IMG/VR virus record: IMGVR_UViG_2875713109_000006
Reading direction: 5' to 3' (one strand)
Source: a virus
Taxonomy: Duplodnaviria > Heunggongvirae > Uroviricota > Caudoviricetes
DNA: 5,364 nucleotides
Position numbers and translations under genes: made by a program. The stretch's first letter is position 1, and each line of letters starts with the position of its first letter. The notes under the pieces are model-generated. The model saw only the letters and a list, made by a program, of their open reading frames with translations, was not told the DNA's origin and made no database searches. Of the stretch, positions 2,573 through 5,364 are shown in pieces.

Positions 2573-3076
2573 TCACATCAGGCCGGTGGCGTTGGTTGTG
2601 ACCAGATCCACCGCAGCGGCCAAAACCGGCGCAGAGTGAATACGGCTTTCAACGGTATAAGCCAGCACGGATAAGCTACGGATTGCATCTCGGGCACGAT
2701 CCAGAATTTGAGTACGGCGGGCGGCGGTCATATGACCAGCTGATACGGCTTCCCCAGCAATCGCGCCCACACTGGCTGTGGCGCTCAGTGCACACAGTTG
2801 CATGTTGCCTTCTGTTGCATTGTTCACCGGTACGGATGGAAGGCAGTTAATCTGCCCCAGCATCCCATCCAGTAAACGCGCATCTTCGGTGTAATCCGTG
2901 ATAGCCAAAAGTTCATCACAGGTCAGGCGGTGCGGTTGCGCTGGGTTCAGTTTATTACGCAGGATCTGTGGCCTCATACCAACGGCAGCGGCCACATCTT
3001 CAAGATTGTGCTCAATTGCAAATGCTCGGCAAGCCGCATCAAAGTGCGCATGTTTAGAGGTCTGGTAATCAAACAT
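2573..3076 (-). CDS. cII: CII-like transcriptional activator (167 aa), phage 186 CII family
   Basis: N-terminus MFDYQTSKHAHFDAACRAFA and the internal LRNKLNP-QPH segment match my recollection of phage 186 CII, which is of similar length. Strong RBS GGGAGAGG 6 nt upstream of the ATG. Located directly downstream of the Apl-like gene, as in 186. Confidence 0.75.
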   Translation of the reverse strand: MFDYQTSKHAHFDAACRAFAIEHNLEDVAAAVGMRPQILRNKLNPAQPHRLTCDELLAITDYTEDARLLDGMLGQINCLPSVPVNNATEGNMQLCALSATASVGAIAGEAVSAGHMTAARRTQILDRARDAIRSLSVLAYTVESRIHSAPVLAAAVDLVTTNATGLM

Positions 3077-3106: not shown

Positions 3107-3328
3107 TTACGCTTTAAGCGAAATGTCACATTCGCTTAAAGCCTGAATAGTGAGCGCGGCCATGTTGACTTCGACCAGGCCTTTCTTCTGCTTACCCTTC
3201 GGCTTAATAGGTAATTTCCCGTATTCGATCAGGTTCCTGGCGGTTTCTTTGTTGGTACCAGTACGGCGGCAATACTCGTCTAAAGGCAGGTATGGCTCTG
3301 GGATGATGATTGTAATGTTCGGACGCAT
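3107..3328 (-). CDS. apl: Apl/Cox-like small HTH protein (excisionase / lytic-side repressor), 73 aa
   Basis: First gene of the leftward operon, divergent from the repressor gene. ATG at 3328..3326 is preceded by GGAG at 8 nt spacing. The N-terminus MRPNITIIIPEPYLPLDEYCRRTGTNKETARNLIEYGKLPI aligns in register with my recollection of the P2 Cox N-terminus. The ORF track extends it to a GTG at 3388 (93 aa); the true start is unresolved. Confidence 0.65.
   Translation of the reverse strand: MRPNITIIIPEPYLPLDEYCRRTGTNKETARNLIEYGKLPIKPKGKQKKGLVEVNMAALTIQALSECDISLKA
3111..3142. promoter_or_regulatory. Perfect 12-bp inverted repeat GCTTTAAGCGAA / 8-bp spacer / TTCGCTTAAAGC inside the last 11 codons of apl
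   Basis: Read directly: gctttaagcgaa-atgtcaca-ttcgcttaaagc. It encodes ALSECDISLKA on the - strand and is not followed by a T-tract on either strand, so it is not a terminator. It lies about 280 bp from the switch. Confidence 0.4.
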
Positions 3329-3447
3329 GAGGCAAACTCCATAAGTTAACCTGTACGGCAATACAGGGCTGTAACTGTCAATATTCACTTAAACCTACAA
3401 AGCGGAGTTTAAACTCACTCCGCGCAAGATTTCAAGGTAAAACTTTC
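3329..3447. promoter_or_regulatory. Divergent apl-cI intergenic region: presumed lysis/lysogeny switch with promoters and operators
   Basis: Contains (i) dyad CCTGTA-N6-TACAGG at 3350..3367; (ii) a perfect 12-bp palindrome GAGTTTAAACTC at 3405..3416 nested in GCGGAGT-N8-ACTCCGC (3402..3423); (iii) a candidate - strand promoter TTGAAA (3435..3430), 16-bp spacer, TTTAAA (3413..3408); (iv) a perfect TTGACA on the - strand (3381..3376) with no matching -10. Promoter assignments are by eye and uncertain. Confidence 0.5.
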
Positions 3448-4026
3448 GTGAATCTACAAATTGAGTTTTCTCATGGCGGAGCTGAGGTACTAGATAGAGT
3501 TATCCAAGCGTATGGATTCAACACAAAACTAGCCCTAGCCGAACATCTTGATATAGCAAGCAGCAGTCTGGCTAACCGGTATAAGAGGGATTTTTTTCCA
3601 GCTGATATCGTTGTTAGATGTATGGCTGAAACAGGAGCTACTCTGGAATGGCTTGCGACTGGACAAGGTAGAAAGTTTAACGATGACGAATTAGACATCA
3701 TGAAATTGCCACGCAAGAAGATTGTGGACGGAAAACTCTATGAGTCTGGTTTCCTAATGCTCGATAAGGTTACTTTTTTACCTGGCAAACCTTTACCGCA
3801 GAATCCTATCTGTGTGATTGATAACACAATGCAATACATTGTTGATCAACACTTTACTGAAGTTTATGACGATGTTTGGCTTGTCGAAGTTGAAGGTAAA
3901 ACCAGCGTTAGAACACTAACACGCATCCCTGTGGGAAAAGTTAGAGTAAGCGGCGTAGGTATGGCTTTTGACTGCGGTATTGACGATATAAAAATCATCG
4001 GCCGCATTGTTCTGACGATTGAATGA
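3448..4026 (+). CDS. cI: CI-type immunity repressor (192 aa), phage 186 CI family
   Basis: Length and N-terminal region (VLDRVIQAYGF...LDIASSSLANRY) match my recollection of 186 CI (192 aa). N-terminal HTH-like segment followed by a C-terminal domain. GTG start at 3448 with AAGGT about 10 nt upstream; there is no in-frame ATG near the N-terminus. Directly upstream of and co-oriented with int. Confidence 0.75.
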   Translation: MNLQIEFSHGGAEVLDRVIQAYGFNTKLALAEHLDIASSSLANRYKRDFFPADIVVRCMAETGATLEWLATGQGRKFNDDELDIMKLPRKKIVDGKLYESGFLMLDKVTFLPGKPLPQNPICVIDNTMQYIVDQHFTEVYDDVWLVEVEGKTSVRTLTRIPVGKVRVSGVGMAFDCGIDDIKIIGRIVLTIE

Positions 4027-4027
4027 A

Positions 4028-5068
4028 ATGAGTGTTCGTAAACTTCCGACAGGCGAATGGATCGCCGACTTCTACACCGTCAACCGTAGTAATGGTAAGA
4101 ACGGGAAGCGCATACGTAAAAAATTTGCCACGAAGGGGGAAGCCCTGGCATTTGAGAACCATACGCTTCAGAAAGTAGACAGTGCGCCCTGGCTGGGTGA
4201 AGGGAAGGACAAACGAACTTTAATAGACCTGATCACAATGTGGTATGAACGCCACGGAGTAGCTTTGCGCAATGGTCAAAAGCGCAAAGACGCTATGACC
4301 TGGGCGGCAGAGTGCATGGGATTCCCGCTAGCTACAGAGTTTAATGCCCAGCTGTTCACGGCCTACCGCGCAAAAAGGCTTGATGGGCATTATGCCCGCA
4401 CTAGCAGAGTATCCAAGGTTTCCCCGAAAACAATGAACCTTGAACATGCTTACTTCCTGGCTATGTTCAACGAGCTGAAACGAATCGGGGAATGGTCAGC
4501 CCCCAACCCACTGGAAAACGTCAGACAGTATCGTACTGATGAAACCGAAATGGCTTTCCTCACTGCTGAAGAAATTGAGCTGCTTTTGCTGGAATGCAAA
4601 CGAAGCAAAGTAAAATACTTGGAGCTAGTCGTAAAAATCTGTCTTGCGACCGGCGCAAGATGGAATGAAGCGGCAACGCTGAAAAGCTCTCAGATCGCAG
4701 GCGATAAAGTTACGTTCGTCAAAACCAAAGGGAAGCGCAACAGAACAATCCCCCTTGATGATGAACTTCTATCCGAATTGCCTGAAACGAAAGGCGCTCT
4801 GTTCCCCAAACCCTGCTATAACGCGTTCCGCTCTGCTTTGGAACGCGCAGGCATTGAACTCCCCTCCGGCCAGCTTACCCATGTACTGCGCCATACATTT
4901 GCCAGCCACTTTATGATGAACGGCGGGAACATTCTGGTTCTGCAAAAAATTCTCGGCCACGCTGACATCACTATGACAATGCGTTATGCCCATTTCGCCC
5001 CAAGCCACCTTGAAGATGCCGTGCGACTTAACCCCTTAAAATGTCGCAAAAATGTCGCGACAGCTTAG
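4028..5068 (+). CDS. int: Tyrosine recombinase / phage integrase, P2/186 Int family (346 aa)
   Basis: Catalytic signature present: LATGARWNEA (box I Arg), HVLRHTFASHF (His-x-x-Arg) and TMRYAHF (Tyr nucleophile). N-terminus resembles P2 Int. ATG at 4028 lies 1 nt after the cI stop TGA (4024..4026). The ORF track begins at an in-frame TTG at 4019, which would overlap cI by 8 nt. Confidence 0.9.
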   Translation: MSVRKLPTGEWIADFYTVNRSNGKNGKRIRKKFATKGEALAFENHTLQKVDSAPWLGEGKDKRTLIDLITMWYERHGVALRNGQKRKDAMTWAAECMGFPLATEFNAQLFTAYRAKRLDGHYARTSRVSKVSPKTMNLEHAYFLAMFNELKRIGEWSAPNPLENVRQYRTDETEMAFLTAEEIELLLLECKRSKVKYLELVVKICLATGARWNEAATLKSSQIAGDKVTFVKTKGKRNRTIPLDDELLSELPETKGALFPKPCYNAFRSALERAGIELPSGQLTHVLRHTFASHFMMNGGNILVLQKILGHADITMTMRYAHFAPSHLEDAVRLNPLKCRKNVATA

Positions 5069-5235
5069 AAATACTGCCGAATACTCACAGATATTAACTA
5101 ACGTAACTTATTGATAACACTGTAAGTTATTGTTTTTCGTAGATAGTTGATGCTTTATAATATAGCCTGTGCTATATCTGTATGTAATGCAATCATCCCT
5201 CAAGGATCGACGGGATTAGCAAGTCAGGAGGTCTT
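5069..5235. other. AT-rich spacer downstream of int; candidate att / prophage-end region
   Basis: In P2-like phages the attachment site lies just beyond the 3' end of int. The region holds direct repeats TAACTTATTG (5103..5112) and TAAGTTATTG (5123..5132) and AATACT (5070..5075, 5080..5085), plus a TATAAT hexamer at 5156..5161. No tRNA-like structure was seen and the core cannot be identified from the sequence alone. Confidence 0.3.
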
Positions 5236-5364
5236 ATGAATGAGTTCAAGAGGTGTATGCGCGTGTTTAGTCATTCTCCCTTTAAAGTACGGTTAATGCT
5301 GCTCTCTATGTTGTGCGATATGGTCAACAACAAACCGCAGCAAGATAAACCTTCCGATAAATAG
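5236..5364 (+). CDS. Small ORF (42 aa: MNEFKRCMRVFSHSPFKVRLMLLSMLCDMVNNKPQQDKPSDK), function unknown
   Basis: ATG at 5236 is preceded by a consensus AGGAGG (5226..5231) at 4 nt spacing. The TAG stop is the last three bases of the window. No motif recognised; it may be a host gene at the prophage junction or a phage moron. Confidence 0.4.
   Translation: MNEFKRCMRVFSHSPFKVRLMLLSMLCDMVNNKPQQDKPSDK

Follow-up and report, generated by a model that had tools for sequence, protein, structure and literature searches.

The right-hand end of the window, which is the whole 5,364-bp stretch of viral DNA analyzed here, is the attR of a prophage. Positions 5069-5364 form the right prophage/host junction of a 186-family (Peduoviridae) prophage of ~29 kb, which is inserted in E. 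coli between the divergently oriented genes mntR and mntS. The explanation that best accounts for this end of the window, and is very probably correct, is an attR of this kind with a standard P arm on the left and host mntS on the right. The analysis establishes where the junction and its core lie, that mntS belongs to the host, and that each of the three motif classes is conserved. The attachment site is of the 186 type, both in its mechanism and in how it is laid out, and the gene mntS was already known. The result settles a question that had been left open by a sequence-only reading of the same DNA: the 42-codon ORF at the end of the window is host mntS, while the direct repeats in front of it belong to the architecture of the phage arm. 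The features are listed below in window coordinates.

2573-3076, minus strand: CII-like gene
3107-3328, minus strand: gene for a Cox-like excisionase/repressor, 73 aa (PHROG 575, E = 1.7e-27)
3357-3364 and 3377-3384, minus strand: switch-region motif copies GTATTGCC and ATATTGAC, 20 bp apart in the cox-cI spacer
3448-4026: CI-type repressor gene
4028-5068, plus strand: tyrosine integrase gene, 186 family (Pfam Int_N, 107 bits, 1e-31; Phage_integrase, 89 bits, 5e-25)
5038-5058, plus strand: candidate P-arm Int arm-type sites AAAATGTCGC AAAAATGTCGC, a TGTCGC pair with an 11-bp period
5071-5098, plus strand: candidate RDF operators ATACTGCC / ATACTCAC / ATATTAAC, three ATAYTGNC repeats in 10-bp phase
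5104-5116, minus strand: repeat 1 read as TATCAATAAGTTA, a perfect IHF consensus WATCAANNNNTTR
5123-5135, minus strand: repeat 2 read as AAACAATAACTTA, one mismatch to the IHF consensus, preceded by an A tract
5156-5166: att core (crossover region) TATAATATA(GC), placed by comparison of empty and occupied sites
5160-5177: host MntR-type box ATATAGC-CTGT-GCTATAT, with its ATAGC-N4-GCTAT part at 5162-5175
5226-5231, plus strand: Shine-Dalgarno AGGAGG of mntS, 4 nt before the ATG, read from the sequence
5236-5364, plus strand: mntS, 42 aa (ATG at 5236, TAG at 5364), by NCBIfam NF033226 and locus conservation

The left part of the window carries the lytic-operon genes of a P2/186-like phage. CI, CII, the Cox-like protein, and the P2-type structural genes are all present in the prophage. 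The tyrosine integrase adjacent to the junction has an N-terminal arm-binding domain by Pfam and is 62% identical to the Int of phage 186; in the lysogen used for mapping (strain 1919D3, locus L001, 48 kb), RefSeq labels it "phage integrase". The phage collection held no close relative, with the best int matches at 65-68% nucleotide identity. The Cox-like gene is the first in the operon divergent from cI, which is the position of apl in 186. No similarity was found between the Cox-like protein and 186 Apl, and a Cox-like rather than an Apl-type RDF paired with a 186-type Int and CI is new at the level of the individual family member.

To place the junction, positions 5069-5364 were searched against 5426 complete E. 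coli genomes. The sequence was matched in 5422 of these, but in all but 30 the match starts only at query base 84, which is window position 5152. Host homology therefore begins at 5152. In the same genome set, 30 genomes carry the int-to-mntS stretch of the window, and a probe across the empty site was intact in 5392 of the 5422 genomes and split in 30 (two separate counts of 30). The site is thus seldom occupied. The P arm of the window is found in 27 E. coli genomes.

The junction was mapped by comparing a phage-free allele (L002) with the 1919D3 lysogen and with a second strain, 573 (L089). The empty site, attB, reads ...GCAATAGCTA-TATAATATAGC-CTGTGCTATAT. In the lysogen, attL reads ...AGCTA-TATAATATAGC-TTTCTTTGC, and the attR of the window reads GATGCTT-TATAATATAGC-CTGTGC. 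Strain 573, which has a different far arm, has an attL that reads AGCTA-TATAATATA-ACTATATAAG, so the sequence common to all partners narrows to TATAATATA at 5156-5164. This short core is identical in attB, attR, and both types of attL (L002, both ends of L001, and L089), while TATAATATAGC, which extends to 5166, is also common to the 1919D3-type attL. The sequence-only reading had expected attP just past int and the prophage/host junction within about 200 bp of position 5068. Both expectations were borne out, since the core lies 88 bp beyond the int stop codon and the junction 88-98 bp from it. The two comparisons that the reading had proposed were also informative: alignment with the phage-free allele located the core at 5156-5164/5166, and the second copy of the core was found at the other prophage end in L001, 28.9 kb away, with the P2-type structural gene set in the interval. 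The junction was identical in every E. coli variant examined (100%, 98%, 96%, and 93% identity). Phage DNA extends to ~5155, and everything to the right of the core is host. Because of this position of the core, both direct repeats are phage DNA and part of the P arm.

Exact junction scans of viral contigs and metagenome contigs found no free attP junction, and the reconstructed attP had no match in the phage collection or records. The attP is therefore a reconstruction and not an observation, and it is predicted to read ...GATGCTTTATAATATA(GC)TTTCTTTGC.... The closest relative outside E. coli (L003; JBOBHQ010000024.1, Bacterium BS0013) has an Int that is 93% identical, and its contig stops at 4125, ...GATAGTTAATGCTT, just left of the core.

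The 42-aa ORF is the host chromosomal gene mntS, which encodes a small protein for manganese accumulation and is carried on the RybA RNA. Its product scores 96 bits with the NCBIfam model NF033226 (small_MntS; cut-off 36), and it passes this equivalog model with mntR adjacent. The matched host part is annotated as mntS in all matches, with or without the prophage. The gene order is mntR-mntS-opgE-ompX, and mntR is divergent from mntS in the empty site (L001, L002). With Rfam, the whole window gave only a chance snoRNA-like match (E = 0.64) and no match to a RybA or riboswitch model. MntS is described as a conserved, expressed small protein that is encoded in RybA RNA and repressed by MntR (PMC4361602), which agrees with the earlier expectation that the ORF is translated; very probably it is. 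Compared with the E. coli mntS/RybA locus (Waters 2011; Martin 2015, PMC4361602), the CDS, leader, and ribosome-binding site show no less than 98% identity with the other genomes listed. The 30 split-site genomes differ from the ordinary locus in having phage DNA upstream of the core and the second MntR-type box ~29 kb away on the mntR side.

The sequence-only reading had allowed that the ORF might instead be a phage-borne moron expressed from the lysogen. The ORF does adjoin the prophage end and has a strong ribosome-binding site. However, a moron should lie inside the prophage and be absent from phage-free alleles, whereas this ORF lies to the right of the core, outside it, and is found in 5422 of 5426 genomes, 5392 of which have an unsplit site. 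Together with the match to the MntS model, the empty-site comparison refutes a moron, and we regard this option as practically eliminated. The reading had named, as the case that would count against it, an ORF in a conserved host gene with the repeats inside host sequence; only half of this applies, since the ORF does belong to a conserved host gene while the repeats lie in phage DNA.

The best candidates for the arm-type sites of the integrase are two TGTCGC hexamers at 5042-5047 and 5053-5058, which are inside the 3' end of int and within its last 30 bases. The pair, written as RTGTCGCAAWAATGTCGC (RTGTCGC-N4-RTGTCGC), has exactly two copies in the 48 kb of L001 (0.02 expected), one per arm of the prophage, and both point the same way. 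In strain 573, whose P' arm is otherwise unrelated, AAATGTCGCATAAGTGTCGC is found at +72 from the core, against +71. The 11-bp period and the A-rich spacers are as in AATGGCGAT-AAAGTGGCGGT of 186, and relatives carry the TGTCGC pair too. Since the pair occurs once per arm and has a 186-like layout, it makes a better arm-type candidate than the direct repeats to which the earlier reading had pointed. At least two direct arm-type repeats are expected on each side of the core (PMC3448106), and the putative TGTCGC sites are arranged in this way, with one pair in each arm and none elsewhere in the 48 kb. P2-like phages fall into two arm consensus groups, tgTGGaCa and tgccGCCActt (PMC3448106). If TGTCGC is the arm motif, as its sequence and arrangement suggest, it is new and lies outside both groups.

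The second hexamer forms a perfect 10-bp palindrome, TGTCGCGACA, at 5053-5062. A third, inverted arm copy in TGTCGCGACA was considered and rejected, as it is kept only in close E. coli variants and in L003 and not in the relatives at 72-75%. Separately, four related loci (L010 at 6064, L011 at 6040, L027 at 4222, and L050 at 4222) have a second arm-type pair ~230 nt past the tRNA-Ile core. The specificity is switched in this second pair (TGGCG where the arm has TGTCGC, and vice versa), suggesting that phages of the two arm types have used the same tRNA, in tandem or with one left as a remnant.

Between int and the direct repeats, the three ATAYTGNC repeats at 5071-5098 occupy the position that corresponds to the five annotated Apl sites of 186. 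For P2-like phages, the RDF is described as acting on direct repeats in helical phase, which are found at att and again in the space between the lytic and lysogenic promoters (PMC7498355). The same arrangement appears to be present here, with three 10-bp repeats that are shared with the cox-cI region, where the copies are inverted relative to those in the P arm. The 73-aa protein, a member of PHROG 575 ("Cox-like excisionase and repressor"), is the presumed binder of the 5071-5098 repeats. Across 11 loci, the P arms have TAYTR at 47/kb and the switch regions at 27/kb, which is 7- to 12-fold above the background of 4/kb. The base that follows TAYTR covaries with the Cox helix in both regions: with the TNKETAKNLIEYG-type helix, 25 of 26 sites have C or A at this position, and with the MSKSTAxNLISYG-type helix, 16 of 20 have G. 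When window positions ~3330-3445 are compared with L001 43278-43412, there is a 19-bp offset across the cox-cI spacer and the CI accessions differ. Phages at this att site therefore differ in the switch region, which possibly means a different immunity type.

The direct repeats themselves are GTAACTTATTG at 5103-5113 (repeat 1) and GTAAGTTATTG at 5122-5132 (repeat 2), identical at 10 of 11 positions. The sequence-only reading was right to call them imperfect direct repeats, but the spacing it gave, 20 bp, is off, as the start-to-start period is 19 bp. It had suggested that they are either arm-type or IHF sites. The repeats are phage DNA and fit the IHF consensus, so the second option stands in part, while the arm-type option does not, because the motif is absent from the other arm. 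Repeat 1, at 5104-5116, is the only match to the perfect WATCAANNNNTTR in the 5364-bp window, where 0.34 are expected. Repeat 2 is the core-proximal and most broadly conserved element. Its single mismatch falls at an IHF consensus position, and of three variants in repeat 2 among E. coli lysogens, two are at consensus N positions and one changes a consensus base. In the 48-kb L001 locus, exact GTAASTTATTG occurs only as the two adjacent repeat copies. With up to one mismatch, there are four matches where 1.16 are expected, so the repeat pair taken alone is weakly above chance.

Comparison with related loci gave a clearer picture. A relaxed pattern, YAANNNNTTGWTW, matches only the two repeats within the window, and 42 of the 57 related integrase loci have it at constant offsets (+61/62 and +80 to 82 from the first arm-type repeat), with a spacing of 19-20 bp. 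Across the 57 loci, 58 matches fall in the 170-nt arm and one on the opposite strand, compared with 66 in 353 kb of flanks. This corresponds to a density of 6.1/kb in the arm versus 0.09/kb in the background, or ~65-fold, and nearly all arm matches share one orientation. The +61/62 element is found in 17 relatives and the +80 to 82 element in ~40 of the 57 related P arms, including the 186 subgroup, which carries the latter as CAAACTATTGATT. The element persists across TGGCG and TGTCGC arm motifs, Apl- and Cox-type RDFs, differing tRNA cores, and hosts that range from Escherichia to Gilliamella and Aeromonas. Because it persists whatever the arm motif, RDF, core, and host genus, it is best explained by a shared host factor. 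IHF fits the repeats by sequence and position and is probably that factor. The homologous element of 186 lies at L083 2410-2422, and only 6 bp of it fall within the annotated DNase I footprint of IHF on the int side (2386-2415); homology of the element to a proven IHF site is therefore not established. One IHF contacts ~35 bp of DNA, so two sites 19 bp apart are probably not occupied together.

Other explanations for the repeats were weighed against this one. They might be sites for the Cox-like excisionase, for example for a dimer or tetramer two helical turns apart. Direct repeats between the arm sites and the core are in the usual place for an RDF, the 19-bp period is close to two helical turns, and HP1 Cox binds two direct repeats that include GTMA; a literature search on this HP1 motif gave no relevant paper. 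The 8-mer TAACTTAT of the repeats is also found just upstream of cox, on the minus strand at window 3341-3348, but this switch-region copy is not conserved in relatives. Moreover, the 186 subgroup has the element at the same offset although its RDF, Apl, is unrelated, and it is ATAYTGNC, not the repeats, that links att with the switch region and covaries with the Cox helix. Binding of the repeats by the Cox-like protein is thus quite unlikely. It is very improbable that the repeats arose by chance in A+T-rich arm sequence and have no function. In favor of this, the excess within one locus is weak, as noted above, and when the region is folded as RNA, it does no better than shuffled sequence (z = +0.67); against it are the fixed position, the single orientation, and the ~65-fold enrichment over 57 loci from many genera. 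Least credible for the repeats is a role as arm-type sites of the integrase, for which we see hardly any prospect. They are direct repeats in the arm that adjoins int; however, neither P' arm contains a copy, and GTAASTTATTG is found nowhere else in the prophage, while TGTCGC pairs do occur in both arms. The repeat motif is also unchanged in phages with TGGCG arms and therefore does not track integrase arm specificity. The repeats are thus better read as IHF-type than as arm-type sites. A hairpin or terminator was also considered, as TAACTTA and TAAGTTA are reverse complements, and was rejected given the folding result and the loss of complementarity in relatives such as L008.

With the repeats taken as IHF-type sites, the P arm would be standard for a tyrosine integrase of two specificities (arm and core). 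Its order would be two TGTCGC Int sites, three Cox-like operators, two IHF-type sites, and then the core, the site of strand exchange, ~20 bp beyond the IHF-type sites. By analogy with 186, P2, and lambda, IHF would bend the arm so that one Int could hold an arm site and the core together, and the Cox-like protein on its phased sites would tip the complex toward excision. In P2, by contrast, it is the other arm that carries the Cox boxes. The host DNA beyond the core consists of one MntR-type box, the mntS leader, and mntS. We infer from the motifs which protein would bind which site. The outcome is a parts list of candidates for an uncharacterised 186-family site, namely arm sites, excisionase operators, IHF-type sites, and a core of 9-11 bp.

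The record of phage 186 (U32222; Dodd, Reed, Egan) lists int, three arm-type sites, five Apl sites, an IHF footprint, and a core in tRNA-Ile and, beyond the core, a second IHF footprint, a terminator, and two more arm-type sites. Like the 186 attP (U32222; PMC7498355), the site described here has int, tandem arm-type repeats with an 11-bp period, phased RDF operators, an IHF region (putative here), and the core. In both, the RDF operators recur inverted in the pR-pL switch, and a terminator-like hairpin accompanies two like-oriented arm-type repeats in the second arm. The two differ in the arm motif, which is TGTCGC here and TGGCG in 186 (RTGGCG, 11-bp period), and in the RDF, which is Cox-like with three sites here and Apl with five in 186. 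In addition, there are two IHF-type elements on the int side here and one in 186, the core is in a promoter/operator region here and in tRNA-Ile in 186, and there is no orf69 between int and the arm here.

More similar in their parts are the relatives at tRNA-Ile(CAU) (L006-L012, L014-L015, and Yersinia phage vB_YenM_324, L084). These have TGTCGC pairs as here, a near-identical 73-aa Cox-like RDF, ATAYTGNC repeats, and both IHF-type elements at equal offsets. Their Int is 65-75% identical for the genome loci, and the int of vB_YenM_324 is 65% identical at the nucleotide level. Their core, however, is the anticodon loop plus the 3' half of tRNA-Ile2 (CTCATAATCGCTTGGTC...CCACCA), the 186 target, and it has only T-ATAAT in common with the window core TATAATATAGC. 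Like the P2 attP (Yu & Haggard-Ljungquist), the site has an arm-and-core tyrosine integrase, two direct repeats per side, an IHF site on the int side (putative here), an RDF that doubles as a switch repressor, and an intergenic attB that is not a tRNA. It differs from P2 in the arm consensus (tgTGGaCa in P2; PMC3448106) and in its repressor, which is of the 186 CI type and not P2 C.

The target of this prophage is the 185-bp spacer between mntR and mntS. No tRNA is annotated in the fetched regions around attB, so it is not a 3'-tRNA target of the 186 type. It lies instead in the operator region that serves mntR and mntS, two genes of manganese homeostasis. An attB outside tRNA genes and in this region is mildly new, and no report of a prophage at mntR-mntS was found among the papers searched. 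The empty site has two MntR-type boxes 19 bp apart (L002 2992-3005 and 3011-3024; 0.16 expected in 6.2 kb). The mntH promoter has the same ATAGC-N4-GCTAT palindrome, which is reportedly its MntR box, and MntR is also said to bind the box on the mntS side. Searching the literature for the literal box sequence gave no paper. The core bridges the interval from one box to the other, and therefore mntR and mntS keep one box each. In the lysogen, box 1 is with mntR at attL and box 2 with mntS at attR, 28.9 kb apart. An older rybA annotation would place the 5' end of the RNA near window 5193; the core would then lie at about -35 and box 2 between -35 and -10, and the core promoter would remain whole.

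Between int and mntS, no terminator-like site was seen on the plus strand. The cI-int operon has its terminator-like hairpin beyond the far-arm sites, which is also the arrangement in 186. Transcripts of cI-int could therefore run into mntS, and such read-through in lysogens is conceivable. A broader proposal is that the prophage rewires host manganese control by splitting the boxes, with read-through that raises or uncouples MntS, so that lysogenic conversion would result from position. We consider this rather unlikely. If true, it would be lysogenic conversion via position and not cargo. The integrase would then be one of the 186 family that has switched its target, from the anticodon loop of tRNA-Ile to a similar TATAAT in a promoter. 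Should the insertion alter expression of mntS or mntR, manganese handling would be different in the carriers, which are 0.5% of E. coli genomes. Without a change in expression, this is an ordinary prophage junction, which is how we read it.

Promoter-like sequences were seen around the core, all as consensus matches only. A minus-strand ATTACA-18-TATATT lies over the core in the empty site (L002 3037-3008). It is whole at attR (L001 45156-45127), where it would point antisense into int. At attL, a hybrid TTGTGA-16-TATTAT (L001 16246-16219) takes its -35 from the phage and its -10 from the core and points toward mntR.

The interval between int and attP is a moron slot, like that of orf69 in 186. 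In many relatives (L005, L007, L010-L012, and L063), an additional ORF that encodes a GEWGxGKT P-loop motif separates int from the arm repeats, and a variant in E. coli EC42405 (L087 713-1294) has a minus-strand ORF of 193 aa there. The cargo gene just inside the attL end also differs between lysogens of this site. In L001, it is a hexapeptide-repeat acetyltransferase-like ORF (16308-17012), of a type seen in nine genomes, and the far-arm TGTCGC pair overlaps its start. In L089, the cargo is an AIPR-family (abortive-infection-type) protein (25202-26938). Some of the apparent lysogens are deletion remnants. Strain 573 (L089 24878-37900) has ~13 kb left, with a tail gene fused to a truncated replication endonuclease, and in PSJ-16 (NZ_AP027632.1 3046481-3050369), the far-arm and near-arm sequences are ~3.9 kb apart.
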